From positions 44,621-108,620 of the forward strand of contig DYTN01000002.1 in NCBI GenBank assembly GCA_020725925.1: a stretch of DNA of 64,000 bases, in the 5' to 3' direction. Position numbers and translations under genes: made by a program. This document shows positions 341 to 22,191 of the stretch, piece after piece. Below the pieces are notes generated by a model that saw only the letters and a list, made by a program, of their open reading frames with translations, ran no database searches and was not told the origin of the DNA. The DNA is from Methanobacteriota archaeon. GTDB lineage: Archaea; Thermoplasmatota; Thermoplasmata; UBA10834. Every line of letters begins with the position of its first letter. The first letter of the stretch is position 1.

Positions 341-2755
341 ATGCCGAAGGACGAGTCAGGAAAGGTCACTTGCCCCATCTGCGGCTACGAATCACCGGAA
401 GGTTCCGCCAGGTGCGAGCACTGCTACAGCTCGCTTCTCCCTGTCGCCACCGAGAACGAGGGGCGGGGGAAGGACTCCAAGACGGTTCCAGACGAGAAGG
501 AGTTGGACGAGCTCAAGCTCGTTCCCGGCGTCGGAGAGGCGAAGGCGGAGGCCCTCCACGAGGCAGGCTATCGATCGATCAAGGACCTCAAGAGCGCGCG
601 CGTCGACGACCTCGCGTCCGTCAAGGGCATCGGCGAGAAGCTCGCGACCAAGATCCTCGAGAGCGTGCACAGGATGTCGACAGGGACGACGGATTCGTCC
701 CTCGCGAACTGGCTCTCGGGCGAGGACGACGGCCTGTCGGACTGGCTCTCGGGAGACGAGAGAGCGCGGCCGGAGGCCACGGTCGCCAACAGAGAGCGGC
801 CGCGGGACGATTCGCTCGCGCGCTGGCTAGCCGGCGATGAGGAGGACGTGAGCGTCTGGCTCGACGAGACGAGGACGGCCGAGGTCGAGCCGCACGAGAT
901 CGGTCCGAACGAGCTGCTCGCCCGCGAGGCCGAGCTCATCCAGCTCAGGGAAACCCTGAGGGAGAAGCTGAGGCAGCTCGACATCGGGGATTTCGACGCC
1001 CAGGGCACAATCGAGGAGCTCGCCAAGGTCCGGGGGGACTACGAGCTCGAGAGGAACAAGACGAGGGAGCTCGAGGAAGAGCTGGAGAACGTCAAGCGCG
1101 GGAGCATCGCAGTCATCAAGTTCATCAAGAGCCAGCAGGGCGGCGAGGCCGACCAGGACGCACTCGCCGACAAGCTGGCGTCCGAGATGGCCAACCGTGA
1201 GACGCTCGAGCTGCAAATCATGCAGCTCGAGGAGACCGTCTCGGCACTCAAGGACAAGCTGGACTCGGGCTTGCAGGAGCTGCCCTCGGACGCACAGGCG
1301 CTGAAGCAGCAGGAGATCGCGCTCGCGGAGAGGCAGGCACAGCTGGATGCGATGAAGAAGCAGCTCCTCGCCAAGGAGGAGGCTCTCAGTAGGGGCGCGC
1401 TCGTGGGAGCGCCCGGGGAAGCGGGCGTCGTCGTGGACCCAGGCCTCGTCCAGAAGGTCCAGGAGTATGCGCGCAGGGAGCAGGAGCTACTCGCAAAGGC
1501 CCAGGACCTCGAGTCCAGGCTCGCCCAGGCCAAGCTCGAGACGAAGCAGAAGGAGGAGATGATGAAGCTCTCGAGCGCGCCGGGAAAGACCATGGACAAG
1601 GAGGTCCTGAGGAAGGTCGAGGACGCTCAGCGCATCGAGCGGACGCTCGTCGTCAGGGAACAGGAGGTCCAGCGCCTCAGGGAGGACCTGAAGATCCGCG
1701 AGGAGGAGATCACCAAGCTCAAGGAGCCGATGAAGTACAAGGAGGACGAGATGCTCAGGCGCGAGGAGGACCTCATGTACCGCGAGCGCCTCCTCCAGGA
1801 AGAGCTCAAGAAGGTGAGCCAGGCAAGGGCGGAGCTGACCTCGCAGGACGAGCTCACGCTCAAGAGGCGCCTGGAGGAGCTCCAGGCGGAGGTCACGGTC
1901 AAGGAAGAGGAGATCAGGTCCAAGGAGAAGTACCTCTCGGCCAAGGAGGAGGAGCTGAGGCTCCGCGAGCAGGGCGTCATCACTGAGGAGATCGAGAGGC
2001 GCGAGCAGGAGCGCATGCTCGAGTTCAAGCAGGAGAAGGTGAAGACTGGAACTGCAAGGCTCGACGACCTGCTGCTCGGCGGCGTGCCGTTCGGCTCGAA
2101 CATACTGATCTATGGTCCGCCGTTCACGGGGAAGGAGGTGCTGTTGAGCGCGTTCATCGCCGAGGGGCTCAAGAAGGGCATCCCCGCACTCTGGATACTC
2201 ACCGAGAAGTCCCCCAAGGAGATGCGCGAGGAGATGTCGTACGTCGTGTCTGGGTACGAGGAGTACGAAAAGCTTGGGCTCGTGAGATACGTCGACGCGT
2301 ACTCGAGGAGCATGGGGGACGAGTCCCAGGACCCGTACGCAGAGTACATCGAGTCGCCCACGGACTACGAGTCGATCCAGAAGGCGATTGAGAACGCCAC
2401 GAAGGCGTTCAAGGAGAAGCACGAGTACTACCGCGTGGGCTTCAGGTCGATATCGACGCTCATCGCCTACCTCGACCCGGGCACGGCCTTCAGGTTCCTC
2501 AGCCCCGTCGTGGGCAGGAGGAAGAGGGACAGGGCCGTGGCGGTGTACACCATCGAGAAGGGCGTTCACGGCGAGCAGGAGATACAGATGATAGGCTCGC
2601 TCATGGACGGCATGATCGAGTTCAAGGTGGAGAACCTGAACACGTTCCTGTCCGTGAGGGGCATATGCGACGTCCAGTCCAGGGCATTCATCAGATACTC
2701 CGCAACGAAGACCGGGGTGTCGATCGGCTCGTTCTCGCTCGACCACATTCGGTGA
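341..2755 (+). CDS. Multidomain protein: N-terminal zinc ribbon, helix-hairpin-helix pair, ~450-aa coiled coil, C-terminal KaiC/RecA-like P-loop domain.
   Basis: - ORF 272..2755; preferred start ATG 341 after GGAGAG.
- N-terminal zinc ribbon CPICGY..CEHC.
- HhH motifs (LVPGVGEAKAEALHEAGY, VKGIGEKLATKILESV).
- Long Glu/Leu/Lys/Arg heptad-rich region.
- C-terminus GGVPFGSNILIYGPPFTGKEVLL..VDAY, typical of KaiC-family single domains.
- Walker A is variant (GKE instead of GKT/S). Confidence 0.7.
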   Translation: MPKDESGKVTCPICGYESPEGSARCEHCYSSLLPVATENEGRGKDSKTVPDEKELDELKLVPGVGEAKAEALHEAGYRSIKDLKSARVDDLASVKGIGEKLATKILESVHRMSTGTTDSSLANWLSGEDDGLSDWLSGDERARPEATVANRERPRDDSLARWLAGDEEDVSVWLDETRTAEVEPHEIGPNELLAREAELIQLRETLREKLRQLDIGDFDAQGTIEELAKVRGDYELERNKTRELEEELENVKRGSIAVIKFIKSQQGGEADQDALADKLASEMANRETLELQIMQLEETVSALKDKLDSGLQELPSDAQALKQQEIALAERQAQLDAMKKQLLAKEEALSRGALVGAPGEAGVVVDPGLVQKVQEYARREQELLAKAQDLESRLAQAKLETKQKEEMMKLSSAPGKTMDKEVLRKVEDAQRIERTLVVREQEVQRLREDLKIREEEITKLKEPMKYKEDEMLRREEDLMYRERLLQEELKKVSQARAELTSQDELTLKRRLEELQAEVTVKEEEIRSKEKYLSAKEEELRLREQGVITEEIERREQERMLEFKQEKVKTGTARLDDLLLGGVPFGSNILIYGPPFTGKEVLLSAFIAEGLKKGIPALWILTEKSPKEMREEMSYVVSGYEEYEKLGLVRYVDAYSRSMGDESQDPYAEYIESPTDYESIQKAIENATKAFKEKHEYYRVGFRSISTLIAYLDPGTAFRFLSPVVGRRKRDRAVAVYTIEKGVHGEQEIQMIGSLMDGMIEFKVENLNTFLSVRGICDVQSRAFIRYSATKTGVSIGSFSLDHIR

Positions 2756-3294: not shown

Positions 3295-3328
3295 GCCCGG
3301 CTGCCCAGGCTCACAGATGACAGACGAG

Positions 3329-3401
3329 TGCCGTGGGCCGGACTTGAACCAGCGACTTCAAGATCTTCAGTCTTGCACTCTCCCAACTGAGTTACCACGG
3401 C
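3329..3401 (-). tRNA. tRNA-Phe (anticodon GAA), CCA not encoded.
   Basis: - The reverse complement folds as a cloverleaf.
- Acceptor GCCGUGG / CCACGGC.
- D-arm ACUCAGUUGGGAGAGU.
- Anticodon stem CAAGA/UCUUG with loop CUGAAGA.
- T-arm GCUGG-UUCAAGU-CCGGC.
- Discriminator A. Confidence 0.8.
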
Positions 3402-3675
3402 TCGCCGGAGCAAAAAGGCAGTTACGCGTTTCCTATATTAAACCTCTGCACGCGATGCGAGGAGCGGATGCCTCTCGCAAGAACGTGCAGGGATGCGCTC
3501 GCAGCGTGCGGGGAGGAGGTCGTCAGAGGAGTCAACGAAAGGCATCCGGAAGGAGCGGCTCTCGGGCGTTTTTTTCGCAATCCACAGGCGTTTTCGCCAC
3601 GATAGCAAAAACAATAGTATTAAATATGTTCCAGACGCTGATTAGGTTGCTTCGAAACTCTTGTTTGGTGGTAGG

Positions 3676-4680
3676 ATGACGTCGTCCCCCCAGTACACTC
3701 ACTACTCTACTGACTCGACCGCCGACCGTATCAAGAAATCACCTAGATGGGGCAACGATGAGGGGGTCGCCGCGACGGTCGGCACCATCATGGCGCTCCT
3801 TGTCTTCCTGACCTTCTTCGGCATGTTCACGAACCAATTCGTCCCCGTTTGGATGGGCGACAACGAGAGCGCTCACATGTCGACTGCGATCCAACAGGTC
3901 ACGACGCTCAAGTCGTCAATCGACACCTCGATCTCGATCTACGCGAACAGCCTGGTCGCTGCGGCGCCGATGTCCGTGCCAATCACTCTAAGCGCGTCAG
4001 GCATACCCGTCTTCGCCGCTCCCACTGCGGGCATTCTGCAGTTCACACCCGAGGGAGTCCTTGTGCGCCCAATGTTCAATGTCACATACACCTACCAGTC
4101 CACGGGCGGGTATACGAACACGCTCAGCCCGGCCAACGACGGAAGGTCCGGGGGGATGCTCGACCTGTACTGTCCGAACAGGTACTATGTGGAGCAGCAC
4201 CTGACCTGGGAGAACGGCGCGGTGATACTGAACCAGAGCGACGGCGAGTTCGTCATCGCGGGACCGCAGTTCTCGGTCAGGGACCTGGGCACCGCGGGCT
4301 CGCCCAACAGGGCCGTGATGCTGACCCAGATCTCGCTCCAGGGCACCAACAAGACGATAGGGGGGACTGGCTCGAAGCTCGTCACGGCCGAGATGCAGTT
4401 CGCGGACACGAAGTCCTACGAGAACGCCAACGGTGCCTCGCTGACGATCACCATAGTCACGAAGCACGGCATGGCGTGGGCGAGGTACTTCAACTCGTCG
4501 CTCCAGAGCTCCCCCGCCGGCCTCGACTACGGGACGGACTTCTGGGTCAACTGGACCCTCCACGAGCAGACCAACAAGCTCGACAACTACTACACGGTCA
4601 CAATCACGATAGGCCAGGTCATGATACTCGACCACACGAAGGCGACAGTCAAGCTGTCAGTCGGCGAGCTGGGGGTCTAG
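3676..4680 (+). CDS. Membrane-anchored extracellular beta-rich protein, candidate (minor) pilin or pilus-associated protein of the downstream pilus operon.
   Basis: - ATG at 3676 (the ORF-track TTG at 3661 is less likely).
- A charged N-region is followed by a single hydrophobic helix VAATVGTIMALLVFLTFFGMF.
- A Thr/Ser/Gly/Asn-rich beta-rich ectodomain follows.
- Stop is 12 nt before the secretion ATPase start.
- An AT-rich TTAAATAT box lies ~45 nt upstream. Confidence 0.5.
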   Translation: MTSSPQYTHYSTDSTADRIKKSPRWGNDEGVAATVGTIMALLVFLTFFGMFTNQFVPVWMGDNESAHMSTAIQQVTTLKSSIDTSISIYANSLVAAAPMSVPITLSASGIPVFAAPTAGILQFTPEGVLVRPMFNVTYTYQSTGGYTNTLSPANDGRSGGMLDLYCPNRYYVEQHLTWENGAVILNQSDGEFVIAGPQFSVRDLGTAGSPNRAVMLTQISLQGTNKTIGGTGSKLVTAEMQFADTKSYENANGASLTITIVTKHGMAWARYFNSSLQSSPAGLDYGTDFWVNWTLHEQTNKLDNYYTVTITIGQVMILDHTKATVKLSVGELGV

Positions 4681-4691
4681 GGAGGAAGACG

Positions 4692-6446
4692 ATGGCCGAA
4701 ACACATCCGAAACCGAAGCATGAAGTGCCCGTCAGCGCCCCGAAGATGCCGCTGGGTTCGAGAATCTACCAGGGCTGGGTGGGCGCGCTGAGCAAGATGA
4801 AGTCCTCGCCCGTGGAGGTCAGACAGCCCAGGGGAGCCGCTGCCAGGAAGCGCGACTGGAGCCAGGGCAGGGGTTCGGTGTACACTCAGGTCCCGCCGAT
4901 AACCGACATCGACATCCAGGAGATGGGGTTCTACGGGGTCGAGGAGCCGTTCAGCTACGTCAGGGCCACATACAACGGCGCCACCAGCGAATACCTCCTT
5001 AACGTGATCGAGCCCGCGCTGACCGAGGAGGAGGAAGAGCTGCTGAGGCTGATTAAGGAGACCCTCGAGAAGACCCTCGAGTACGACTGGGAGAAGCTCA
5101 CGGTGATGGACAAGAAGACCTACATCGAGAGGAGCGTGGACAGCTACATCAAGTCCAGGGGGATGGCGATCGAGCCCATCTCCAAGGACAAGGTCTCATA
5201 CTTCATCGCAAGGGACTTCGTCGGCTATGGGCCAATTGACGCCCTGATGAACGACCACCACATCGAGGACGTTTCTTGCGACGGCGTTGGCATCCCGCTG
5301 TTCGTGTTCCACAGCAAGTTCGAGTCGATCAAGACGAACATCATGTTCGAGGACGAGAACGACCTGAACTCGTTCGTGGTCAACCTGGGCCAGAGGTGCG
5401 GGAAGCAGCTCTCGGTCTCAAACCCGATCCTGGACGGCACCGCACCGGAAGGGCACAGGGTCCAGGCGACGTACGCCAGGGAGGTCACGACCAGGGGCGC
5501 ATCGTTCACCATCAGGCGGTTCAAGGAGAAGCCCTTCACCCCCGTCGAGCTCATCAAGTACGGCACCGCATCTCCCGAGATCGTGGCGTACATGTGGCTC
5601 AGTGTGGAGCACGGCGAATCCGCGATCATATGCGGGGGAACAGCGAGCGGCAAGACCGCGACCTTGAACGCCATGGCACTTTTCATACCGCCCGGCGCGA
5701 AGGTCGTCACGATGGAGGACACCAGGGAGATCAACCTGCCCCACGAGAACTGGATCCCCGGCACCACCAGGTCAGGTGTGGGAGAGCGCGGGCCCGACGG
5801 CAAGGCCGCGGGCGAGATAGACATGTACGACCTGGTGAGGGCCTCGTTGAGGCAGAGGCCCAACTACATCATCGTCGGTGAGGTCAGGGGCAAGGAGACC
5901 TACACGATGTTCCAGGCGATGGCCACGGGCCACACAACATTCTCGACGATGCACGCGGACAGCGTCAAGGGCATGGTCAACAGGCTCGAGAACCCCCCCA
6001 TCAACTGCCCGAGGATACTGCTCACCGCCCTGAGGAACGTCATCATACAGACCCATGCCAGGGTGGGCATGGACATGGTCAGGCGCATAAAGCAGCTCAT
6101 AGAGATCGTGGGGTTCGAGCCCGAGACGAACGAACTGATCTCGAACACCGTCTACGAGTGGGACCAGGCAACTGACAAGTTCATCTTCAAGGGGCACAGC
6201 TTCCTGTTCGACAAGATCATGGAGATGAAGAACCTGACGCACGAGGAGCTCCTGCAGGAGTTCGAGCGGAGGGTGGACGTCGTGAAGTACATGGTCGCGA
6301 AGGACATCACTGACCACAGGGAGATCTGGGGGCTCATCAGGGAGTACTACAAGGACTCGAAGGTCACCTCGGAGCGAATCAGGAAGGAGCTCTATGGCTC
6401 CGCCCCCAGGCCCACGATGATACCCGGAGGTGAGGTCGCTGCCTGA
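4692..6446 (+). CDS. Type IV pilus/archaellum-type assembly ATPase (FlaI / TadA / GspE-VirB11 superfamily), paralog 1.
   Basis: - ATG 4692 preceded by GGAGG.
- Walker A GGTASGKTATLNA.
- Asp box TMEDTREINLPHENW.
- Walker B/His box region IIVGEVRGKETYTMFQAMATGH.
- Full-length FlaI-like N-terminal domain. Confidence 0.9.
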   Translation: MAETHPKPKHEVPVSAPKMPLGSRIYQGWVGALSKMKSSPVEVRQPRGAAARKRDWSQGRGSVYTQVPPITDIDIQEMGFYGVEEPFSYVRATYNGATSEYLLNVIEPALTEEEEELLRLIKETLEKTLEYDWEKLTVMDKKTYIERSVDSYIKSRGMAIEPISKDKVSYFIARDFVGYGPIDALMNDHHIEDVSCDGVGIPLFVFHSKFESIKTNIMFEDENDLNSFVVNLGQRCGKQLSVSNPILDGTAPEGHRVQATYAREVTTRGASFTIRRFKEKPFTPVELIKYGTASPEIVAYMWLSVEHGESAIICGGTASGKTATLNAMALFIPPGAKVVTMEDTREINLPHENWIPGTTRSGVGERGPDGKAAGEIDMYDLVRASLRQRPNYIIVGEVRGKETYTMFQAMATGHTTFSTMHADSVKGMVNRLENPPINCPRILLTALRNVIIQTHARVGMDMVRRIKQLIEIVGFEPETNELISNTVYEWDQATDKFIFKGHSFLFDKIMEMKNLTHEELLQEFERRVDVVKYMVAKDITDHREIWGLIREYYKDSKVTSERIRKELYGSAPRPTMIPGGEVAA

Positions 6447-7470
6447 GGTATCTGACGTATTTAGGAAGGTCGAGGTGAAGCCGGCTCAGTACCTCAAGAC
6501 CAAGATCACCATGGGCGAGGGGACCATCGGGCCGCACTCGGTCAGGCTCGTGAAGGGGACGGTGCCGGAGTACATCAAGCTCTCTCCGTTCCAGGACCTC
6601 GCCTGGAGGACCATGGGCAAGCGCGCCAAGACGAAGACCGCGCTCCTGCAGCAGCTCGAGGAGTCGCTCCTGAAGGCCCACATGAAGATCCGGCCGGAGG
6701 AGTACCTGGCGTATGTCCTCATGGCGACACTGGTGACCGCCGTCGTGGGGGTCGTGATAGCCATCGTGGTCGGCGTGCTGATCTTCGGCCTGATGGATGT
6801 CAACATCATGCTCAGGATAATGGTCTCGGTGGCAGCGATTCTGCTCCTTCCGATCATGACCTACTTCCTTCTGTTGGGCTCCCCCGGCTCGAAGGCGAAG
6901 TCCAGGAGCAGGGACATAGACAAGCGCATTGCGGCCGCGATGAGCTTCATATCCGCGATGGCGTCTGCGGACGTCAACATCGATGTCATCTTCAAGGAGC
7001 TGTCGAGGCAGAAGGTGTACGGGGAGATAGCCCACGAGTCCGCCTGGATCACGAGGGACACGGAGCTCCTCGGGTCCGATATCCTGTCCGCCATCAAGAA
7101 GGCCGCCAGGAGGTCCCCATCCGCGAAGTTCCAGGACTTCCTACAGGGCGTCATCACAACCTCCACCTCGGGCGGGCAGCTCAAGCCGTACTTCCTGCTC
7201 AAGGCGGAGGAGTTCCAGAAGGAGAACAAGCTCGCCCTCAAGTCCCAGATGGAGACCCTCGGGATGCTTGCTGAATCCTTCGTGACGGTCGTGGTGGCGT
7301 TCCCGCTGTTCCTCGTGCTCATCCTGGCGATCATGGCAATCGTCGGCGGCGGAGGCGACCCGGACTTCATGGTCATGATGCTCTATCTGATCGTCCTGGG
7401 GATGATCCCTGTGTCCCAGTTCGGCTTCGTGTTCGTCATCTGGAACATGTCAAAGGAGGCTTCGATGTAG
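6430..7470 (+). CDS. Pilus platform membrane protein with a single T2SSF domain (TadB/TadC/FlaJ-like), half 1.
   Basis: - Several TM helices.
- The cytoplasmic helical domain RDIDKRIAAAMSFISAMASA..QDFLQGV is typical of GspF/TadC family domains.
- Overlaps the upstream ATPase stop, indicating operon coupling. Confidence 0.75.
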   Translation: MRSLPEVSDVFRKVEVKPAQYLKTKITMGEGTIGPHSVRLVKGTVPEYIKLSPFQDLAWRTMGKRAKTKTALLQQLEESLLKAHMKIRPEEYLAYVLMATLVTAVVGVVIAIVVGVLIFGLMDVNIMLRIMVSVAAILLLPIMTYFLLLGSPGSKAKSRSRDIDKRIAAAMSFISAMASADVNIDVIFKELSRQKVYGEIAHESAWITRDTELLGSDILSAIKKAARRSPSAKFQDFLQGVITTSTSGGQLKPYFLLKAEEFQKENKLALKSQMETLGMLAESFVTVVVAFPLFLVLILAIMAIVGGGGDPDFMVMMLYLIVLGMIPVSQFGFVFVIWNMSKEASM

Positions 7471-8406
7471 ATGCCGCCGCAGAGGAAGATGTCGGAGCAG
7501 GAGCGGGAGAGGGCCCTCAAGAGGATCCTCGCGACTGAGCGGGCCGACAAGACCAGGACTATCGTGGGCGGCTCCATCGGAGTGGCTGCGGTCCTCATAT
7601 TCGCGGGCGTCGTGGACTACATAGGCAGTGCTGACCTGCCGCTGGACGCCATCGACTGGATCATATTCGCCATAGCCGCGATCATCGGCCCGTACGGCTT
7701 CTACGTGAGCGCCAGGGAGAAACGCGTGAGGGAGATTGAGATGAGGCTGCCCGACTTCCTCAGGGATGTCGCAGAGGCCGGGAGGTTCGGCATGACCCTC
7801 GCGGATGCCATCGTCGTCGCGAGCACCGGCAGGTACGGCAGGCTCACGCCGGAGATAAAGAAGATGGCCGCGCAGATAGAGTGGGGCGTGCCCGCCTCGG
7901 AGGCCATCAGGCTGTTCTCCGAGAGGGTCAAGACGCCCCTGGTGACGAGGATGGCATCCATCATCATGAAGGCGAACGATGCGGGCGGCAACGTCGCCGA
8001 CGTGCTGAGCATGGTCTCGCACGACGCGAAGGAGACCATCCTGACGCAGGAGGAGCGGGGCGTGACGATGCAGACCTATGTGCTCGTCGTGTACATCGCC
8101 TTCTTCGTGTTCATCGCGACAATCCTGATCCTGCAGGGCCAGTTCCTCCCGAAGATGGAGGAGGCGGGCACGCAGGTGAGCGAGGCGGCGGAGGCCCAGG
8201 GCGTCGGGGAGATACCGGGAGTGAGCATACAGGTCGACATCATACCAACAGTGGGGTTCATCTTCCTGCTGTCCGTGCTCGTACATGCGATTGGCGACGG
8301 GCTCCTGGCGGGCGTGATACAGAAGGGGAGCATCCCGATAGGCATGAGGCACAGCTTCATCATGCTGCTGGCCGGCTTCGTGTCCCTGAGGATCATAGGA
8401 GGCTGA
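7471..8406 (+). CDS. Pilus platform membrane protein with a single T2SSF domain (TadC-like), half 2.
   Basis: - Start codon abuts the previous stop (TAGATG).
- TM helices.
- T2SSF-like cytoplasmic domain LPDFLRDVAEAGRFGMTLADAI..RLFSERV. Confidence 0.75.
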   Translation: MPPQRKMSEQERERALKRILATERADKTRTIVGGSIGVAAVLIFAGVVDYIGSADLPLDAIDWIIFAIAAIIGPYGFYVSAREKRVREIEMRLPDFLRDVAEAGRFGMTLADAIVVASTGRYGRLTPEIKKMAAQIEWGVPASEAIRLFSERVKTPLVTRMASIIMKANDAGGNVADVLSMVSHDAKETILTQEERGVTMQTYVLVVYIAFFVFIATILILQGQFLPKMEEAGTQVSEAAEAQGVGEIPGVSIQVDIIPTVGFIFLLSVLVHAIGDGLLAGVIQKGSIPIGMRHSFIMLLAGFVSLRIIGG

Positions 8407-8410
8407 CAGG

Positions 8411-10126
8411 ATGACAGCAGAGACTGCGCAACCAAGGATCGTGCCTCTGGAGGCCCCGACGGAGGAGGCCAAGGAGAAGAAGAAGGGGCCTGGCCTGAAG
8501 TCCGCGTACTACAACTTCCTGCTCAAGCTCAAGCCCAAGCCCCTCATGGTCGCGCTCCCGAAGACGGAAGCGACCGTGGACATGTCCAGGATAACGGAGA
8601 TACCGAAGCTGACCGAGCCGAACATCGACGAGGTGGAGACGGCCCCGGTCAAGCAGAACTACTCCTATGTCAGGATCAAGTACGACAACAAGTCGAACGA
8701 GTACCTCTACGAGGTGATCGAGCCGCGGCTCTCAGAGGACGAGCGGGACGTGCTGAGCCTGCTCAAGGAGACGCTCGTCGCCTCCGTCGAGCACATGACG
8801 GAGGTCTCGACTGAGGAGAAGGAGAAGTACCTGAGGAGAATAGTCGAGCAGCTGATGCTCCAGCTGGCCGTCACCCTCAACCCCGTCTCGAAGGAGAGAG
8901 TGATGTACTACATAGCCAGGGACTTCATCGGGTACGGCGTCATCAACGTGATGATGATGGATCCGAACGTCGAGGACTGCTCCTGCGATGGCGTCGACAT
9001 CCCGTTCTACATATACCACAGGAAGTACGGTTCGATCAGGTCCAACCTCAGGTTCGCGGCCGAGGTGGAGCTTGACGGATTCGTCGTCTGGCTGGCCCAG
9101 AAGTGCGGCAAGCACATATCCGTGGCGAGCCCGCTCCTGGACGCCACCATCCCCGACGGCTCGAGGCTCCAGGCAACCCTGGGCAAGCACGTGACCAAGA
9201 GGGGCTCCTCGTTCACCATCAGGCGGTTCAAGGAGAACCCCTTCACGCCCCTGGACCTGCTCAAGTTCAAGACCATGGGCACCGAGATGATGGCCTACCT
9301 GTGGATCGCCATCGAGCACGGGCAGTCGATGCTCGTGTGCGGAGGCACCGCGAGCGGCAAGACGACCACGCTCAACGCCGTCCTGCTGTTCATCCCGCCC
9401 CAGATGAAGATAGTCTCGATAGAGGACACTAGGGAGCTCAACCTCCCGCATGAGAACTGGGTCCCGGGCCTGACTAGGGAGGGCTTCGGCGGCAAGAGCG
9501 CGATCACCGGCCGCGCCACGGGCGAGATAGACATGTTCGACCTGCTCACATCGGCCATGAGGCAGAGGCCCCAGTACCTGATGGTCGGAGAGGTCAGAGG
9601 CAAGGAGGCGTACGTCGTCTTCCAGGCCATGGCCACGGGCAAGACCTGCTACTCCACCTTCCACGCAGAGGATGTCCAGGCGATGGTGCACAGGATGGAG
9701 AACGACCCCATCAACCTCCCCAGGGCGCTCATCACGGCGCTCAATGTCGTGCTCCTCCAGGCGCAGGTCAAGGTCGGCACGAAGATGACCAGGCGGGTCA
9801 AGTCGCTCACTGAGATCGTCGGGTTCGACCCCGAGACCAACGAGCTCATCACCAACTCTGTCTACACCTGGAACCCGGCGGACGACACCTTCAACTACAG
9901 CGGCCACAGCTATGTCTACGAGAAGGTCAGGATGGCCAGGAACTGGTCCCCCAGGGAGATGGAGAGGGAGCTCAAGAGGCGCGTGGACATCCTGGAGTAC
10001 ATGAAGAAGATAGGCATGGACAGCCACAGGAAGGTCGCGACGATCATCTCGGCGTACTACAAGGACCCCGAGAAGGTCATGAAAGAGGTCCGGGCGAAGC
10101 TGGCCGAGGGCGCGGAGAGGATCTGA
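8411..10126 (+). CDS. Type IV pilus assembly ATPase (FlaI/TadA family), paralog 2.
   Basis: - AGGAGG 8 nt upstream of the ATG.
- Walker A GGTASGKTTTLNA.
- Asp box SIEDTRELNLPHENW.
- MVGEVRGKEAYVVFQAMATG.
- Roughly 50-55% identical to the 4692..6446 product over its full length. Confidence 0.9.
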   Translation: MTAETAQPRIVPLEAPTEEAKEKKKGPGLKSAYYNFLLKLKPKPLMVALPKTEATVDMSRITEIPKLTEPNIDEVETAPVKQNYSYVRIKYDNKSNEYLYEVIEPRLSEDERDVLSLLKETLVASVEHMTEVSTEEKEKYLRRIVEQLMLQLAVTLNPVSKERVMYYIARDFIGYGVINVMMMDPNVEDCSCDGVDIPFYIYHRKYGSIRSNLRFAAEVELDGFVVWLAQKCGKHISVASPLLDATIPDGSRLQATLGKHVTKRGSSFTIRRFKENPFTPLDLLKFKTMGTEMMAYLWIAIEHGQSMLVCGGTASGKTTTLNAVLLFIPPQMKIVSIEDTRELNLPHENWVPGLTREGFGGKSAITGRATGEIDMFDLLTSAMRQRPQYLMVGEVRGKEAYVVFQAMATGKTCYSTFHAEDVQAMVHRMENDPINLPRALITALNVVLLQAQVKVGTKMTRRVKSLTEIVGFDPETNELITNSVYTWNPADDTFNYSGHSYVYEKVRMARNWSPREMERELKRRVDILEYMKKIGMDSHRKVATIISAYYKDPEKVMKEVRAKLAEGAERI

Positions 10127-10236: not shown

Positions 10237-13200
10237 CTACTGGTTCTCCTCGTCGCCGCCTTCCTCGCCCTCTTTCTTCTCCTCGGCGCCCAACGGCGTC
10301 TTTATGATCTTCTTGGGCACGACCTTGCGGTCGATCGGTCTCCTGATGACCATCCTCGGAGCGGCTGCCGGGGGCACTGCCGGTGGCGCACCAGCCTCCC
10401 TCTCCGCTGGAGCTGCTGGCTCCACTGCAGCCGGTGCCGTGGGCGGTGGGCCCCTGCGCACAGGCGGTGGGGCGGCTCTCTCGGCGCCGAACACGGTGCC
10501 GCACTTGTGGCACACGGTGGCCTCCTTCGGGTTTAGCGTTCCGCAGACCGGGCACGGGATCGGCCCCTCCTTCTTCTTCTCCTCTTCCTTGGCGAGCCAG
10601 TCCTCGAAGCTGATGTACGCCGGCTGTCTCCTCCACCACTCCTCGAAGGCCCTGTCGGTGAACTTCTTGCCCAGCTCCGGCTTGGCGAGCTCACGGTACT
10701 TGGAGACCATGTCGTCGTACTGCTTCCTCATGCGCTCCAAGTAGTCCGCCTCCTCCTCGACCTCGCCGATGAACTTCACGCCACAGTTCGGGCACTCAGC
10801 GGACTCGGCGGGTATCCATGCGCCGCACTCGGAGCACTTCATCGTACCAGCTTCGAACTCCACGCCACACTTCGGGCACCTCTTGCTCGCAGCGGGTATG
10901 AACGCGCCGCACTCGCCGCACTCGACGAGCTTGCCGAGGCCATACACGTACGTGTATATGGTGAAGCCCGCGACGACGCCGACCACCGCCACTATGATCA
11001 CGATCCAGACCCACCACGGGAACAGGCCGCCCTCGACGGCCGCGCTGATGGTGACCGTCGTGGTGGCATCGTAGTTCTGGCCCAGCACGACCGTCCTCAC
11101 GGCATACGAGCCCGAGTCCAGCTCAGCGGGTATCCTCAGGAAGACTATGATGCTCCCGTCGGCGTCGGTCGTCTCGACCGTGCTGTTGGAGTAGGGCACG
11201 ACCAGCGGGTTGTCGGGGTCGCTCGGATCGATCAGCCAGAAGACCACTCCCGGCAGGCCCACCACGCCTTGGGACGTCCCCTGGTAAGTTATCGTGGCCG
11301 TGATGATCATGATGTCGCCGGCGTCGTACTCGTTCGCGTCGGTGGTCACGGTGACCGAGACCTGCAGCTGCTGTATCGTGAAGGTGTGGTTGGCGAAGTT
11401 GTTGGTCTCGTATGGCTCCGACACGGAGTAGGCCGGATCGAGCCAGACCCACAGCTCGTATTCTCCTGGCGTTGTGAGGTTGATCAGCCAGCTCACGGAG
11501 ATCAGAAGCACGTTGTCAGTCGCGTTGGCGGAGATGTTGTACTCCAGGCCGGTGTGTATCGTGTGGTTGTAGCCCGCAGCGTTCCTCACGCCGATCCGCA
11601 CCTCAAAGACGCTGACGACGCTGCCGCCCAGGTTGCGCACCCTGGCATTGACGGTCACGTTCCTCCCGAAGGTCTCGCCCGTGGTGTTGCTCCCGCCGCG
11701 CTGGACGAATATCTCGTCACCGTCGATCGACAGGTCCGCCCTGATGTCCAGCACGGTGATCGACCCTGTGAGGATGTTGTCCGCATAGGACTCCTCGATG
11801 CGGGACTGCTCGGGGTTGACTATCACGACGATGCTGGCAACGACACTCTGGGTGAGCACTGGGGCAGGGAACTCTATCTTGACCGGCCACTTCCCACTCT
11901 CAGATGTCAGGCTCACGATGACGGTCGTTGTCTTGAGCTCCGAGATGCCCGAGTAGTTGAAGTACACCCAGACCTCCGGGTTGGAGAACGGCATTGGGTT
12001 GGAGTTGCTGAGGTTCACTTCGACTGTGATTGTCTGGCCGCCAGCGACCGAGCCGGCAGGGGATATCTTGAGGTCCGTCAGCTTCAGGTCCGGATGCTCG
12101 TACACGTCGATGTAGACGTAGTCCCAGTTGTTCGTGGTGTACAGCTCCTCGACCCCGTCGGGCAGGCTGGCCACTACTGTGATCCAATGCAGCTCGGGCG
12201 TGGAAGGTGTCCACGGCATTGAGACGAACGTATAGGAGCCAGGAGCGATGCTCGGGATCGTCGTCGTCCCGACCAAGTCCCCTCCGTCGAAGATGTCCAC
12301 AGTCACATCGTAGCTGGTGTTGCTGCCGATGTTGCTTATCTTCGCGACCAGGGTCGTGGGAACATCGACTTCGACGTAGGTATCAGTCGCATAGATCCAT
12401 GGGTCCCACGGGTAGCCATCAGACACGTAGACGTCCGGGAGGCTCTTGACAGTGACGAACCCAGACCCAGTAGCTGGTGCTGTGTTGTTGAGCTCAGGGA
12501 TCGTGTCCAGCGGGTCGACGACAACGATGATTCTGTGCGCATTTGGGTCCAACGGGCTGTCAGCAGTCCAATACCACACAGCGGTGGCATTCGAGCCCGG
12601 CTCGATGACGGGTATCACCGTGGATCCGAAAAGCTCGTCCGACTCAGGGATTCCGTTGTCCCAAGCGTCGTCGTAGAAGTCCACCCTGACATCATATGCC
12701 CTCGCGATACCGTCATTGTGAATGTTGGCGTACACGGTGACGTTCTGCCCAATCCTGGGGTACACAGGGTCAGTCCAAACAGGCACCGGAGGATCATGCA
12801 CTGCCAAGTCCGGCAACGCATCCTCGATGGTCACTGTCAGGTAGGTCACGTTTCTCCCGAGGGGAGTCGTGTAGGGCAGGACGCTCGTCGAAACCTCGCC
12901 GTCGGGGTAGTAGTTCTGCGAGTTGAACGTGTAGGTCACGTTCACCCAGTAGTTGCCCACGTAGCCTTCTGTCGGTCCTGCGCTCGTCAATCTCTGCGCG
13001 AGCGCGTTCACCTTGGCGACACCAAGCGCATCAGGTGCGGAGCTGCTCACAGCAGAGCTTGCGTTTATGCCACTGATGTAGTACCTCGCGGTCACCAAGG
13101 CGCCTGGCAAAGGCTTGCCGACACCGTCCAGGACGGTGACATGTATCCATCTGTATATCAGAGCCGCTGCGTCGCGCTCGACTGTTATGGAGGGAGCGCT

Positions 13201-15408
13201 TGTGTTCGTGAACTCGCCGACTGTGGTTCCAGACAGGATGGGAGCGGCCTGAAGGTCAGAGTCCTTGACGATGATGCTTGCATTGGAGTCCCATTCGGAA
13301 GTGATGACCTTGTCAATCGCCGAGTTCACGATCAGGACTTGAGCGTTCTCGCGGGCCACGATGCTCACACCGACCAGCGATGAATTCAGCACCTGGAGCC
13401 TGCCCTCACCCTGGACGATTATGTCGATCGGCAACGCACTAGACATCGTGGATCCTTCGAACACGAGGAGTGCGGGGTTCGACAGAGTCCCGTCGACGTA
13501 GACCGTCCTCTGGTTCGCGGAGGTCTGCACTATCTGGAAGACCGCGTTCGTGAACCTGAGCGTGCCACCTGCGGCGACGATCGTGTCGCCAGCGTGGTAG
13601 TACGTCATATCGTATATGTGCAAGGAGGGCGGGACAACCAGCCACCTGGCTGGGTCAGGGCTCTCAGCGGATGCCCCCAGCAATGACACGGTTACATCAT
13701 CGCTCTGATCCGAAGCTGTCATAGCTGGATAAGCGTCAAGAGAGAAGGTTTCTGTCGACGAGTAGTTGATAACGCCAATCATTGCACTTCCCGTGATAGC
13801 ATAGGAGCCGACGTAGAGCGATTCGGGGATACCGGCATTCGTGATTATGTCAGAGAGATACGGTATCGCGGCTCTACCATCTGACTTTGTGACGTTGAAT
13901 GTTAGGGCAGTCTCTCCCATATAGCCAAGGACCTCAGGAGGCGGGCTCATGGACAGCCCCGTCGGAGTATAATAGAAGGCTTGCTCGCCCTGGAGCTCGG
14001 TGATTCCCGTGAAATGAGCAACAACGGAGGCACCTTCAATTGGAACGCCATACTCATCTCCCACGGTGACATTCAACCATCTGTAGATGAAGGCATCAGC
14101 ACCGACGGTGAACTCGACTCCGATCCAGTCAAACTCCACGAAACCAGTGCCGACACCGCCGTTGTTCTCGAACCGCACATTGAGTTCCATTATGTCTGCG
14201 ACAGTTGGCACAGCTCCCAACGGTAGGTCAAAGGACATCAGAGTCCCAGGTGGGTCAGTCACACGCGGGATAACGCTAGAATCAGAGTAGACCCCTGACT
14301 CCGGACTCCACTGAATGGCAGCAGTCCCAGCATATGTAGGGGCGACAGAGTACTCCCCAATGACGGAGGCGGAACTCACTGAAAGCGCCGGAGCTAGAGT
14401 GCCGATATCCCATGTGTCAACCTCAAGTATCATTGTCGGCTGCACTTGGATTGTAGAACCGTCGTCGAGCCTGATATTTCCGATTGGCTGACCGGTGTTG
14501 TCATCTCCTCCTTGAGCAAGAGGAACTGCCGTTTGTAGACTACCACCAAGAGAAACCACTGCTGGCGCCCGGTCCGCAAGAGCGCCTGCATACGTCTCGA
14601 AAGATGTGCCATACAAATACGCGTGAGACAGATCATCCAACGCGAGGGTGTTGTGCACATACCAGTGCCCAAGCGTTATCGCAGGTCCGAAGTCCACAGC
14701 GAGGAAACTGTTGACTGCCAACAGGGTCGAGTCCCCGTTCAGCGTGATGTTCTTGGCGAACTGGGCATTCGTCGGATACTCGGGAAGGTCCAATATGCTC
14801 GAGTCGTACAGCTCCAACGTCGAGTCCGTGAGCGTTATCGCCGGCCCGTCATCCGCCGAATCGTAGGTTATGGCACCGCTCGACCCGACGACATACTGGG
14901 AGACGAGCTCTCCCGGCAACGCATGAATCGTGCACTCGTCCAGGGACATCGTGCCGCCGTTCACCAGGGTGATGTTCCCGGGGAACATGAACTCCGATAG
15001 GGCAGAAGCCTCTACCACACCGCCGTCCACAGTGAGCTCGAGGAACGGCCACGGGTTGATCTGGTCCAAGTAAGTGGTTATGACGCCGTGGTCCAGAGTG
15101 AGCGTCCCACCTGCGAACACGGTGATGGAGTGCTTCAATGTCGGGTCGTTGTTGCTGATGACGCTCAGGGTGGCGTCCCTGACTATCAGCGTACCCCCGC
15201 TCCTGACCTCCACGTCGCCGTCGATGGGCTGTTCGATGTTCTCGATGACGTAGGTCTCGTTCTCGACGATCAGGTCGCCCTCGGCGGCTTCCGTTGTCGG
15301 GGCGCCCGAGAGGAACAACAGCCCCGCGAACGCAGAGAACACAAGACTCACGACAACCAAAGCACTCAGAGTTCTATTGGCAAGGAGCATGTCAGCTTTG
15401 CCCTTCAT
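10237..15408 (-). CDS. Giant cell-surface protein (~1720 aa): signal peptide, right-handed beta-helix-like region, several CARDB-like Ig-fold domains, C-terminal TM helix, and a cytoplasmic tail carrying three zinc-ribbon motifs, a Pro/Ala-rich stretch and an acidic tail.
   Basis: - ORF 10237..15480; likely start ATG 15408 (MKGKADMLLANRTLSALVVVSLVFSAFAGLLFL).
- Repeated NxT sequons and beta-strand-rich repeats.
- CARDB-like blocks (PDLAVHDPPVP..VTVYANIHNDG..; PDVYVSDGYPW..; ADLSIDGDEIFVQRGG..).
- C-terminal TM helix WWVWIVIIVAVVGVVAGFTIYTYV.
- Cytoplasmic tail: CGECGAFIPAASKRCPKCG, CSECGAWIPAESAECPNCG, CPVCGTLNPKEATVCHKCG. Confidence 0.8.
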   Translation of the reverse strand: MKGKADMLLANRTLSALVVVSLVFSAFAGLLFLSGAPTTEAAEGDLIVENETYVIENIEQPIDGDVEVRSGGTLIVRDATLSVISNNDPTLKHSITVFAGGTLTLDHGVITTYLDQINPWPFLELTVDGGVVEASALSEFMFPGNITLVNGGTMSLDECTIHALPGELVSQYVVGSSGAITYDSADDGPAITLTDSTLELYDSSILDLPEYPTNAQFAKNITLNGDSTLLAVNSFLAVDFGPAITLGHWYVHNTLALDDLSHAYLYGTSFETYAGALADRAPAVVSLGGSLQTAVPLAQGGDDNTGQPIGNIRLDDGSTIQVQPTMILEVDTWDIGTLAPALSVSSASVIGEYSVAPTYAGTAAIQWSPESGVYSDSSVIPRVTDPPGTLMSFDLPLGAVPTVADIMELNVRFENNGGVGTGFVEFDWIGVEFTVGADAFIYRWLNVTVGDEYGVPIEGASVVAHFTGITELQGEQAFYYTPTGLSMSPPPEVLGYMGETALTFNVTKSDGRAAIPYLSDIITNAGIPESLYVGSYAITGSAMIGVINYSSTETFSLDAYPAMTASDQSDDVTVSLLGASAESPDPARWLVVPPSLHIYDMTYYHAGDTIVAAGGTLRFTNAVFQIVQTSANQRTVYVDGTLSNPALLVFEGSTMSSALPIDIIVQGEGRLQVLNSSLVGVSIVARENAQVLIVNSAIDKVITSEWDSNASIIVKDSDLQAAPILSGTTVGEFTNTSAPSITVERDAAALIYRWIHVTVLDGVGKPLPGALVTARYYISGINASSAVSSSAPDALGVAKVNALAQRLTSAGPTEGYVGNYWVNVTYTFNSQNYYPDGEVSTSVLPYTTPLGRNVTYLTVTIEDALPDLAVHDPPVPVWTDPVYPRIGQNVTVYANIHNDGIARAYDVRVDFYDDAWDNGIPESDELFGSTVIPVIEPGSNATAVWYWTADSPLDPNAHRIIVVVDPLDTIPELNNTAPATGSGFVTVKSLPDVYVSDGYPWDPWIYATDTYVEVDVPTTLVAKISNIGSNTSYDVTVDIFDGGDLVGTTTIPSIAPGSYTFVSMPWTPSTPELHWITVVASLPDGVEELYTTNNWDYVYIDVYEHPDLKLTDLKISPAGSVAGGQTITVEVNLSNSNPMPFSNPEVWVYFNYSGISELKTTTVIVSLTSESGKWPVKIEFPAPVLTQSVVASIVVIVNPEQSRIEESYADNILTGSITVLDIRADLSIDGDEIFVQRGGSNTTGETFGRNVTVNARVRNLGGSVVSVFEVRIGVRNAAGYNHTIHTGLEYNISANATDNVLLISVSWLINLTTPGEYELWVWLDPAYSVSEPYETNNFANHTFTIQQLQVSVTVTTDANEYDAGDIMIITATITYQGTSQGVVGLPGVVFWLIDPSDPDNPLVVPYSNSTVETTDADGSIIVFLRIPAELDSGSYAVRTVVLGQNYDATTTVTISAAVEGGLFPWWVWIVIIVAVVGVVAGFTIYTYVYGLGKLVECGECGAFIPAASKRCPKCGVEFEAGTMKCSECGAWIPAESAECPNCGVKFIGEVEEEADYLERMRKQYDDMVSKYRELAKPELGKKFTDRAFEEWWRRQPAYISFEDWLAKEEEKKKEGPIPCPVCGTLNPKEATVCHKCGTVFGAERAAPPPVRRGPPPTAPAAVEPAAPAEREAGAPPAVPPAAAPRMVIRRPIDRKVVPKKIIKTPLGAEEKKEGEEGGDEENQ

Positions 15409-15521
15409 AAGTTCACCAACCCAGAGATGCTGGGTACTGCGGGAGAAGTAAGCAGTTCGGCCATATAAAAAGGTATTCACCAGGTTTTCATGTCGGAGCA
15501 GACTGTTTTTCGGCAGTCTGG

Positions 15522-16517
15522 CTAACCGCTTTTTCGCTTCACTATTTTCTTGACAAATATCTGCGGTTTCCTCGTCTCCGAGGGCTTGTCAGAGACATCT
15601 TCCGAGCCGACCTTCACCTCGAGCTTCGTCAGCGATTCCTTGATGTTCACGCCGCAGGCGTAGCACATCAGGGCGTCCCGGCTGACCATCGTCTTGCAGT
15701 TGAGGCAGGGGATCTCTTCATCCTCGGACCCCTCCTCTGCCTTCACGGGCTCGCCGAACTCCTCCTCGCGTATCTTCTGCCCGCAGGCGTAGCACATGAT
15801 CGCGTCCTTGCTGATCACGGTCCTGCAGCCGGGGCAGAGCATCTCGTCCTCGCTCAGCGTGGCTGCGAGCGCGGGCTCGGGCTCAATCCTGACCGGCGCG
15901 GCTGCCACCTTGGTCAGCATGTCCTTCTGGCGGTCCAGGAGCTTCCTCGCGTCCTCCGAGAGCTTCTCCCTGTCGCGCCTGAGGGACTCCTCCTCCTCCG
16001 CGAGCGCGCGCTCCCTCGCGACGAGCGTGTCCCTCCGGGCAGTGATCTGCTCGAGCACCCGCTGGATCTCCTCCTCGGACTTCTTCAGCAGGTCCTCCCT
16101 GCTCAGGAGCCTCTTCCGCCTTTCGGTCACATCCGCCTGGAGGGTGTTGATCTCCGCAAGCCTGTCCGAGGCGTCCTTCTCCCTCGCCTCCGCAGACGTG
16201 ACCGCCGCCTTCGATACCGCCTCGAGCTTGGCTAGCTCGGCGGCCCTCGAATCAAGCTGGCCCGCCCTCTCCTTAAGGGATGACTCCTGTCTCTTGAGTT
16301 CCTCAACGCGCGCCTCGACCGAGGATTCCTTCTGCCTGATCGAATCCTCCTTCTCCCTGAGGCGCTGCTCGAGCGCCTCGACCTCGGACTTCTGCTTCAG
16401 GACGTCCTCGCGCTCCGCCTTGAGCTCGAGGTCCTTCTTCCTGACCTCGGCCTCCTGGGTCTTGAGGCGCTTGACCGCGTCCTCGATTATCTGGGAGATC
16501 GTCTGGTCTTCTGCCAT
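15522..16517 (-). CDS. Coiled-coil protein with two C-terminal zinc ribbons (DZR-type).
   Basis: - ~230 aa of Glu/Lys/Arg/Leu-rich heptads.
- Then CPGCRTVISKDAIMCYACG and CLNCKTMVSRDALMCYACG.
- Followed 80 nt later, on the same strand, by a KaiC-like gene. Confidence 0.7.
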   Translation of the reverse strand: MAEDQTISQIIEDAVKRLKTQEAEVRKKDLELKAEREDVLKQKSEVEALEQRLREKEDSIRQKESSVEARVEELKRQESSLKERAGQLDSRAAELAKLEAVSKAAVTSAEAREKDASDRLAEINTLQADVTERRKRLLSREDLLKKSEEEIQRVLEQITARRDTLVARERALAEEEESLRRDREKLSEDARKLLDRQKDMLTKVAAAPVRIEPEPALAATLSEDEMLCPGCRTVISKDAIMCYACGQKIREEEFGEPVKAEEGSEDEEIPCLNCKTMVSRDALMCYACGVNIKESLTKLEVKVGSEDVSDKPSETRKPQIFVKKIVKRKSG

Positions 16518-16596
16518 CGCTCACCACTTGGGATGGTTCGGGCGAACGCTTCCTCACGCATATACGTTGTGGACTACTACAAAGTTTTGCCGCGCG

Positions 16597-17313
16597 CTAC
16601 GGCGCGCTCATGAGCGGGCCGAGCACCTGGATGCCGTTCCTCCCGACCTCGATCGCGTGCCTTTCCATCGAGTGCTCCGAAGCCCTCATCTTCTCCACCT
16701 GCAGGAACCTCACGAGCTTCCCACGCTGCCTGTCCAGGCCGAGCATCAGTATGCCGTCCGCGAGGAAGCCCTCGTTGCCCAGGAGCTGGCTCTCGCCCGA
16801 GAGCGAGCGCTCCATTATGATGAAGCATGTCAGGTTGTTGTCCCTGATCATCTTGAAGAAATAGAACATCTTCTTGCGCATGTCGCTCACGTTCTCCATG
16901 AGCGAGTAGAGCGCGCCGAGCGAGTCGAGGACGAATATCGAGAACTTGTCCCCGTGGGTCTTCTTGAAGCGCTGGATCATCTTCTCGATGAAGAGGACGT
17001 AGTCGGTCTGCGCCTCCTGGCCTATGACCTCGTCTATCTGGTCGACCTCCCTGAGGTCGGTCAGGTCCGAGATCTGCATCTTCATCGAGAGCTTCGCGCC
17101 TACGCTGTCCATGTTCTTCAGGTGGCTGTCGACCGTCTCCTCCAGGGTGGTGTACAGCCCGAACTCGTTCTTGTCTTTGAGGTAGCTGCTCATGAGAGAA
17201 TAGCAGAATGTGGTCTTCATCGAGCCCGGGGGTCCAGTGACCAAGACGACCTTCGGCCGGTCGATGTCGTTCTTGAAGACCTTCTCCAAGCCCGGAACAG
17301 AATCCTTGAACAA
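16597..17313 (-). CDS. KaiC/RecA-superfamily single-domain (pseudo)ATPase (COG0467-like).
   Basis: - TTG start 7 nt after AGGAGG.
- VVLVTGPPGSMKTTFCYSL..FVLDSLGALY..CFIIMER matches the KaiC-like fold.
- P-loop has Met in place of the second Gly. Confidence 0.75.
   Translation of the reverse strand: MFKDSVPGLEKVFKNDIDRPKVVLVTGPPGSMKTTFCYSLMSSYLKDKNEFGLYTTLEETVDSHLKNMDSVGAKLSMKMQISDLTDLREVDQIDEVIGQEAQTDYVLFIEKMIQRFKKTHGDKFSIFVLDSLGALYSLMENVSDMRKKMFYFFKMIRDNNLTCFIIMERSLSGESQLLGNEGFLADGILMLGLDRQRGKLVRFLQVEKMRASEHSMERHAIEVGRNGIQVLGPLMSAP

Positions 17314-20046: not shown

Positions 20047-22191
<2,145 letters not shown>

Follow-up and report, generated by a model that had tools for sequence, protein, structure and literature searches.

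A KaiC-like ATPase, a coiled-coil zinc-ribbon protein and a giant surface protein beside a two-ATPase pilus operon: a candidate scaffold and switch module in Thermoplasmata

KaiC-like ATPases are, to our knowledge, the most expanded candidate signalling proteins of archaea, and we know of almost no inputs or partners for them; Makarova reportedly proposed them in 2017 as archaeal signalling hubs. In the archaellum, the KaiC-like auto-kinase ArlH, whose state controls motor binding, binds ArlI and sits inside the ArlX/ArlCDE ring (PMC8978795). In Haloferax volcanii, the KaiC-like protein CirA is encoded beside filament-machinery genes and is genetically tied to pilin-mediated regulation and motility control (PMC10983859). 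Here we describe a locus in which the gene for a KaiC-like ATPase is followed by genes for a cytoplasmic coiled-coil protein with two zinc ribbons, which we call the adaptor, and for a giant surface protein with a zinc-ribbon tail, itself convergent with a type IV pilus-like operon. The locus lies in a 64,000-nucleotide stretch, hereafter the window, of contig DYTN01000002.1 from an uncultured Methanobacteriota archaeon of the Thermoplasmata (assembly GCA_020725925.1, forward strand positions 44,621 to 108,620; G+C about 62%). We favour, at a probability of about 0.6, the reading that the ATPase and the adaptor form a scaffold or switch module of this surface locus, serving the giant protein and a two-ATPase pilus machine of the CdiP type.

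CdiP is an adhesive pilus of the thermoplasmatan Cuniculiplasma divulgatum, with two ATPases (CdiPE1 and CdiPE2) and a platform split into CdiPFa and CdiPFb, an arrangement that the available text of PMC12448462 reports as unique to it. For archaeal type IV pilus loci in general, the available part of PMC4858521 (Makarova, Koonin and Albers, 2016) describes KaiC-family ATPases that are often in or near the loci, S-layer-like proteins anchored at the C-terminus by a single transmembrane helix, which are common there, and intracellular coiled-coil proteins likened to HP0958, together with Zn-ribbon proteins; these are separate observations from Halobacteria, Thermoproteales and Thaumarchaeota. 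HP0958 (FlgZ) of Helicobacter pylori, cited in the same text, consists of a coiled coil and a Zn ribbon and is needed for flagellum formation. A preliminary description of the present locus had stated that no signalling relay of its kind was described for archaea, which is too strong, since KaiC-family ATPases, anchored S-layer-like proteins and coiled-coil proteins had already been linked to pilus loci in that text. The association of KaiC with pili is therefore known; what is new here, relative to the loci in the available part of PMC4858521, is a conserved zinc-ribbon tail and a module common to this tail and to the KaiC-linked coiled-coil protein. In a limited set of literature, which did not extend to the 2017 paper of Makarova, we found no description of such a tail, of its three-helix domain or of the common module.

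Layout of the locus and its likeness to described systems

On the minus strand the gene order is gyrB, gyrA, the KaiC-like gene, the adaptor gene and the giant gene, with gaps of 79 bp between the KaiC-like and adaptor genes and 113 bp between the adaptor and giant genes. TATA-like AT-rich boxes stand upstream of each of the last three, and this three-gene locus is chromosomal and syntenic with gyrase. The preliminary description had recognized the three genes on this strand, including a giant with a transmembrane helix and a tail of three ribbons, and these assignments stand. It was also right about an adjacent coiled-coil two-ribbon protein and KaiC-like gene, which it placed in the next operon; the pair in fact lies upstream of the giant gene on the same strand. 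The convergent two-ATPase pilus operon had been overlooked. The features are as follows, with structural assignments taken from AlphaFold 2 monomer models of the tail and the adaptor and their predicted local distance difference test scores (pLDDT).

16597..17313, minus: single-domain KaiC-like (RecA-superfamily) ATPase, 238 aa, Pfam KaiC PF06745
15522..16517, minus: cytoplasmic coiled-coil/zinc-ribbon adaptor, 331 aa (AlphaFold 2, Pfam)
15900..16514, minus: long adaptor helix of about 205 residues, presumably a coiled coil and about 30 nm long when extended (AlphaFold 2)
15777..15836, minus: adaptor zinc ribbon 1 (CPGC...MCYACG)
15648..15707, minus: adaptor zinc ribbon 2 (CLNC...MCYACG), whose profile matches tail ribbon 3
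15534..15557, minus: adaptor C-terminal basic motif FVKKIVKR, in a region disordered in the AlphaFold 2 model
10237..15408, minus: giant type-I membrane surface protein, 1723 aa, with signal peptide, CARDB ectodomain, transmembrane helix and cytoplasmic tail
10939..11028, minus: C-terminal transmembrane helix of the giant
10771..10920, minus: tail zinc ribbons 1 and 2, a double zinc ribbon straight after the transmembrane helix
10570..10752, minus: three-helix domain of the tail (YxxxMRxxYD...WW...FEDWL), its best-conserved part, with invariant residues (AlphaFold 2, pLDDT >95)
10492..10560, minus: tail zinc ribbon 3, adaptor type (hhalign)
10294..10359, minus: tail basic motif PRMVIRRPIDRKVVPKKIIKTP, in a disordered region
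10240-10293, minus: acidic end of the tail
3661..10126, plus: type IV pilus-like operon, convergent with the giant gene (Pfam T2SSE, T2SSF, PilB3_C)
about 3676-4680, plus: pilin-like protein, 339 aa, with hydrophobic N-terminus and weak DUF7289 match
4692-6446, plus: ArlI/FlaI-like ATPase (NCBIfam FlaI, 413 bits)
6430-7470 and 7471-8406, plus: split ArlJ-like platform (T2SSF)
8411-10126, plus: second ATPase (NCBIfam FlaI, 427 bits)

The KaiC-like gene starts with TTG preceded by GGAGG, and residues 5-231 of its product match Pfam KaiC with an E-value of 2.3e-33 (116 bits, cut-off 26.6). The Walker A sequence (GPPGSMKT), the glutamate pair (E58/E59) and the aspartate of Walker B (D130) do not vary among 12 orthologues. 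PDB profile matches place the protein nearest, among solved structures, to KaiC domains and to PH0186, PH0284 and SSO2452, single-domain proteins of archaea. The protein has 770 homologues, those with a named source all belonging to Thermoplasmata/Thermoplasmatota. It is not circadian KaiC proper, having one domain of 238 aa where the latter has two in tandem (about 500 aa) and scoring 44.6 bits against NCBIfam circ_KaiC (cut-off 546); no KaiB-like gene was found among the neighbours of its gene. A canonical archaellum was also rejected, as archaellin and ArlF/G genes were not detected among the open reading frames (ORFs) of the window, and so was an anti-phage defence reading, for which PADLOC returned weak P-loop and coiled-coil similarities alone (E at least 8e-6, at most 22 bits).

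In the convergent operon T2SSE is matched by two proteins, at 111 and 113 bits; of the two T2SSF proteins, one corresponds to the N-terminal half of ArlJ and the other to its C-terminal half. The gene content, from which the machine is known, is that of type IV pilus machinery; the pilin is a putative one, called from its sequence and the weak DUF7289 match. Two ATPases and a split platform at 4692-10126 recall CdiP in layout. Unlike CdiP as described in the available text of PMC12448462, the operon is neighboured by a KaiC-like ATPase, a coiled-coil zinc-ribbon protein and a tail-bearing giant. The two-ATPase, split-platform arrangement is widespread in uncultured Thermoplasmata.

Other parallels are with the archaellum, where ArlH works with ArlI and ArlJ: in the window, too, a single-domain KaiC-like protein is encoded near ArlI/FlaI-like ATPases and an ArlJ-like platform, and the adaptor is a cytoplasmic coiled-coil scaffold candidate comparable to ArlX/ArlCDE. 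Unlike ArlX, the adaptor carries zinc ribbons and has no transmembrane helix; unlike the archaellum, the operon has two ATPases and a split platform, and the KaiC-like and adaptor genes lie outside it, beyond the gene for the giant. With CirA the likeness is one of context, near filament-machinery genes. CirA, by contrast with the system of the window, acts on arl transcription and cell shape, and it is not known to have a zinc-ribbon partner or a surface-protein tail.

The tail and the adaptor have a module in common

The ORF of the giant spans 10237-15480, and translation probably begins at the ATG at 15408, about 55 nt after the TATA-like box TTTTATAT, the clearest of the locus. Apart from a signal-like N-terminus there is exactly one more hydrophobic segment, which is transmembrane-like (aa 1461-1490). 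CARDB is matched in three stretches (E 5.5e-33, 113.6 bits) of the predicted exported ectodomain, and the giant is a putative adhesin. The 233-aa tail contains the ribbons CGEC-x10-CPKC, CSEC-x10-CPNC and CPVC-x10-CHKC, which exceed the Pfam cut-offs for DZR (PF12773; 34.2 bits, cut-off 27.3) and Zn_Ribbon_1 (32.1 bits, cut-off 25), and all 12 ribbon cysteines are invariant among 47 homologues. The tail model built on these 47 sequences (mean pLDDT 76) runs from the transmembrane helix through two ribbons, the three-helix domain and the third ribbon to a disordered C-terminal third. A Foldseek search of the PDB with the whole model gave no match at E <= 0.001, just generic ribbons of the RanBP2/eL40/ArnA type, and there was no meaningful match to PDB sequences.

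Across 108 homologues, identity to the tail is 54-90% and to the ectodomain 23-51% (medians 66% and 37-40%), and the tail is the more similar part in 108 of 108 comparisons; the homologue search with the tail, which returned mostly short partial ORFs, served for alignment alone. Ectodomain length varies from 930 to more than 3000 aa. The tail is under much stronger constraint than the ectodomain, which is the pattern expected of a variable exposed domain joined to a cytoplasmic part with a fixed partner.

The adaptor model, built on a three-sequence alignment, has a single continuous helix over residues 2-206 (pLDDT >90), followed by the two ribbons and a disordered C-terminus. No transmembrane segment is predicted. 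The ribbons score above the Pfam cut-offs for DZR (35.7 bits, cut-off 27.3) and Zn_ribbon_3 (37.4 bits), their cysteines are invariant, and they follow the family signature (E/D)EIPCPxCGTMISxDA(I/V)MCYACG. The helix has weak similarities to the coiled coils of SMC, Rad50 and RNase Y, and a search of PDB sequences with the adaptor gave nothing beyond coiled-coil noise. In its domain grammar, a long coiled coil and then a C4 zinc ribbon, and in its tie to a surface-filament machine, the adaptor resembles HP0958; it differs from the antiparallel hairpin of HP0958 in the predicted single, continuous helix, in having two ribbons and a basic C-terminal motif, and in lacking a PDB sequence match. A word-indexed search for homologues of the full-length adaptor gave 3 matches, the coiled coil having saturated the candidate list; adaptors (n=77) were gathered from the fetched loci. 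In a library-wide phmmer search, the adaptor C-terminus matched 220 cluster representatives, for the most part generic multi-ribbon proteins. One of its matches, P0227, a protein of 1317 aa, contains 16 separate matches to the adaptor ribbon region and is a very long tandem ribbon array.

Comparison of profiles by hhalign connects the adaptor ribbons specifically with tail ribbon 3 (probability 97.4%, E 1e-11). Tail ribbons 1 and 2 cross-match the ribbons of a 543-aa multi-ribbon protein encoded elsewhere in the window. Beyond the ribbons, all tails carry in their disordered region one or two copies of a basic motif, (R/K)(R/K)V(I/V)(R/K)(R/K)P or KKVIKKP, with the acidic end after it, and VKK(V/I)xKK(K/R)V stands at the extreme C-terminus of 77 of the 77 recovered adaptors. 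A regular expression for KKV(I/V)KK matched 162 of the 1484 ORFs that a simple ORF caller gave for 160 fetched loci; 157 of the 162 are adaptors or tails, and the remaining ones are mostly truncated copies of these. In the window the basic motif occurs in the adaptor and giant genes only. The tail and the adaptor thus have in common a module of zinc ribbon, disordered linker and basic KKV(I/V)KK motif. The preliminary description had noted matching ribbons in the two proteins, and the ribbon 3 match and the basic motif make this correspondence stronger than was claimed.

Linkage across Thermoplasmata and the wider neighbourhood

Linkage was counted in two samples. For the first, one genome per GTDB species was scanned with a KaiC alignment, which placed an orthologue in at least 239 species, and counts were made in the best 80 of the 239 loci (KaiC identity 68-93%, one locus per species). 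The second came from a metagenome scan with the tail alignment, which gave 375 relatives, of which the best 80 loci were analysed. The sequences of the relatives are metagenome-assembled genomes or metagenome contigs, and a gene called absent from a locus is absent within 10 kb.

The KaiC and adaptor genes form an obligate pair: the adaptor ribbon region is directly downstream of KaiC in all 66 species loci with enough sequence. A tail-bearing giant follows the adaptor in 30 of 41 loci with at least 7.5 kb of downstream sequence, and 29 of these 41 loci contain T2SSE. Taken from the tail, the adaptor and KaiC are upstream of the tail-bearing giant in 19 of 19 resolvable loci, and in two further loci the giant is longer than the available flank. 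A convergent T2SSE gene lies 0.2-3.3 kb from the giant in essentially every tail-based locus with enough downstream flank, with T2SSF genes after it wherever the sequence extends. The giant is flanked by the KaiC-adaptor pair on one side and by the pilus operon on the other, and the operon accompanies it in both clades examined. The preliminary description had held that an absence of conserved linkage in relatives would speak against its proposal; linkage is conserved from KaiC and from the tail alike.

Where the tail-bearing giant is missing, its place may be taken by another large protein. In at least four KaiC-based loci the adaptor is followed by a protein of 1900-2560 aa with the type IV pilin-like N-terminus GVSE(I/V)(I/V)GT(I/L)L... 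and without a cytoplasmic tail:

L060, 11934-19355: pilin-like giant region
L069, 3487-11052: pilin-like giant region
L070, 12179-19855: pilin-like giant region
L055, 10296-15971: pilin-like giant region

That the slot after the adaptor is filled in this way indicates that the KaiC-adaptor pair is repeatedly tied to pilus-type giant surface proteins, and because these alternative giants have no cytoplasmic tail, the ribbons and motif of the adaptor must have a target besides the tail. Two of these loci, L060 and L070, encode a further pilin-like protein after the giant.

Further ribbon or KaiC-like proteins are encoded around the locus, and the gyrase genes adjoin it:

24815..26974, plus: DnaA-like AAA+ protein with internal zinc ribbon and C-terminal DUF835 (Bac_DnaA 2.7e-48, DUF835 9.6e-30)
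26999..28630, minus: 543-aa cytoplasmic protein with four zinc ribbons, Pro-rich linker and helical C-terminal domain, paired with the DnaA-DUF835 gene
341..2755, plus: 827-aa cytoplasmic protein with Zn ribbon, two helix-hairpin-helix motifs, coiled coil of about 400 residues and KaiC-like/DUF7504 domain
20047-22179, minus: gyrB
17438-20036, minus: gyrA, as two overlapping ORFs

The DnaA-DUF835 protein scores 273 bits against TIGR00362 and has no DNA-binding domain IV; DUF835 has been classed as an inactivated KaiC domain (iKaiC; PMC5847659). Its gene is upstream of KaiC in 40 of 45 loci. In the clade with 68-72% KaiC identity, this gene and the multi-ribbon gene are directly beside the KaiC-adaptor pair, the multi-ribbon gene being divergent from KaiC; in the closer clade they are 7.5-9.7 kb from KaiC. 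In the closer clade, the gene for a membrane protein of the Yip1 family that has a zinc ribbon at its N-terminus (23604-24554, minus) keeps its place between ThiC and DnaA-DUF835. The 827-aa gene flanks the pilus operon, a position conserved in the closer clade, and the C-terminal KaiC-like domain of its product has the Walker A sequence GPPFTGKE. Between it and the operon in the relatives lies a 148-aa ORF without family match (2784-3230, minus; 55-73% identity), beside which stands a tRNA-Phe gene (3328-3401, minus).

Of the eight genes of the window that encode ribbons, six are in its first 29 kb and the other two are of the NMD3 and TiaS type; no DZR-type ribbon was found in the remaining 35 kb. 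DZR ribbons therefore characterize this neighbourhood and not the genome at large, and for the window the idea that they occur everywhere was rejected. The gyrA gene is interrupted near 19005-19012 by an apparent 1-nt indel within an A/T run TTCGGCATAATTCAACCTC; gyrA in relatives is a single gene of 852-866 aa, and the split is probably an assembly error rather than a sign of a pseudogene. An Lhr-type helicase of 1801 aa with a C-terminal AlkZ-like DNA glycosylase domain (30733-36138, minus) is unrelated to the three-gene module.

A scaffold and switch module and its alternatives

The giant, the adaptor and the KaiC-like ATPase likely provide a physical link between the cell surface and the cytoplasm, for which we infer physical contact among them. 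The favoured reading is that the ATPase and the coiled-coil protein would act at the membrane as a cytoplasmic scaffold and switch, together with the giant and the pilus machine. The common module of ribbon, linker and basic motif would dock the tail and the adaptor to one partner, for which the KaiC-like hexamer, the ArlI/ArlJ-like motor and the anionic inner face of the membrane are candidates. By analogy with ArlH-ArlI-ArlX/ArlCDE of the archaellum and, secondarily, with CirA, the tail and its coupling might be governed by the KaiC-like protein through its nucleotide state or its phosphorylation. Such coupling could run either outside-in, with surface contact altering pilus activity, or inside-out, with the surface protein being positioned or anchored. 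In a more specific and decidedly tentative form, the tail and the adaptor would use the same docking module of zinc ribbon and KKVIKK, in competition or in cooperation, to bind a KaiC-like hexamer that gates the two-ATPase pilus motor. If true, archaea would have a new device for coupling across the membrane, in which surface contact or mechanical force is sensed and relayed through a KaiC hub and not through histidine or Ser/Thr kinases.

Several points weigh against the scaffold and switch reading. The KaiC-adaptor pair occurs without a tail-bearing giant in 11 of the 41 loci, and three loci (L005, L067 and L086) have the pair with neither tail-bearing giant nor pilus genes within 10 kb. On a complete chromosome (L038, CP070748.1) the giant locus appears degraded at 11800-13700. 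The one match left there is to an ectodomain remnant, and neither a tail nor any pilus gene lies within 10 kb; KaiC and the adaptor are intact. Gene order in a compact genome can stay conserved without direct interaction. The single ribbons are generic RanBP2/eL40-like knuckles without significant fold match, and the KaiC-like protein is not an orthologue of ArlH/FlaH, the FlaH model PRK06067 giving 30.4 bits (cut-off 194). Finally, the direct adjacency seen in the 68-72% clade means that the primary partners of the KaiC-adaptor pair might be the DnaA-DUF835 and multi-ribbon proteins.

The preliminary description had proposed an outside-in relay, in which contact of the adhesin alters the zinc-ribbon tail, the adaptor reads the change and the KaiC-like ATPase serves as signalling hub. 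The conserved linkage of the three genes, the strong constraint on the tail, the ribbon type and basic motif common to tail and adaptor, and the intact ATPase motifs of KaiC are all consistent with it, as is the proposal of KaiC-like ATPases as archaeal signalling hubs, cited in the available text of PMC5847659. However, no sensor-type or output domain (helix-turn-helix or enzyme) was found in the conserved neighbourhood, there is no obvious transcriptional output, and the adaptor keeps its ribbons and motif beside giants that are anchored by a pilin-type N-terminus and lack a cytoplasmic tail. The giant, moreover, has a pilus assembly machine as its constant partner, so that control of assembly or anchoring fits at least as well. 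Because no output domain is nearby and adaptors persist next to tail-less giants, we consider such a relay unlikely.

A purely structural role would make the giant an envelope or S-layer-like protein whose tail is tethered to a coiled-coil cytoskeletal element, with the basic motifs binding the anionic membrane and KaiC acting as an assembly or remodelling ATPase. S-layer-like proteins with C-terminal anchors are common in archaeal type IV pilus loci according to the available part of PMC4858521, and the available text of PMC12448462 has cultured Thermoplasmatales without a regular S-layer and with a glycoprotein layer instead. The adaptor, with a helix of about 30 nm and no transmembrane segment, needs a means of membrane attachment, and its polybasic-hydrophobic motif is at the extreme C-terminus. 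Yet the motif is not clearly amphipathic and its tail copy contains prolines; the ectodomain is highly variable in length; and several lineages, as well as one complete genome, can do without the giant, which should not be so for a main envelope protein. Structural anchoring seems to us quite improbable.

That the giant and the pilus genes are mere neighbours with generic ribbons, the KaiC-adaptor pair belonging with the DnaA-DUF835 and multi-ribbon proteins to a cytoplasmic KaiC network, would accord with the adjacency of these genes in the 68-72% clade and their linkage in 40 of 45 loci, with the three loci that keep the pair away from giant and pilus genes, and with DZR ribbons on six proteins of the region, but it is very hard to reconcile with the 19 of 19 reverse linkage, the pilin-like giants in the slot after the adaptor in L055, L060, L069 and L070, the ribbon 3 match and basic motif common to adaptor and tail only, and the other 35 kb of the window, where DZR-type ribbons are absent and just the NMD3 and TiaS types occur.

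The locus provides a concrete, widely conserved and testable case in which a membrane protein with a constrained tail, a soluble partner with the same module and a two-ATPase pilus motor are encoded side by side. Should the surface protein prove to be coupled to the motor by the module, this would explain how adhesion structures are coordinated in Thermoplasmata that have no wall or no S-layer, and it would supply the first defined input for the KaiC-hub hypothesis.

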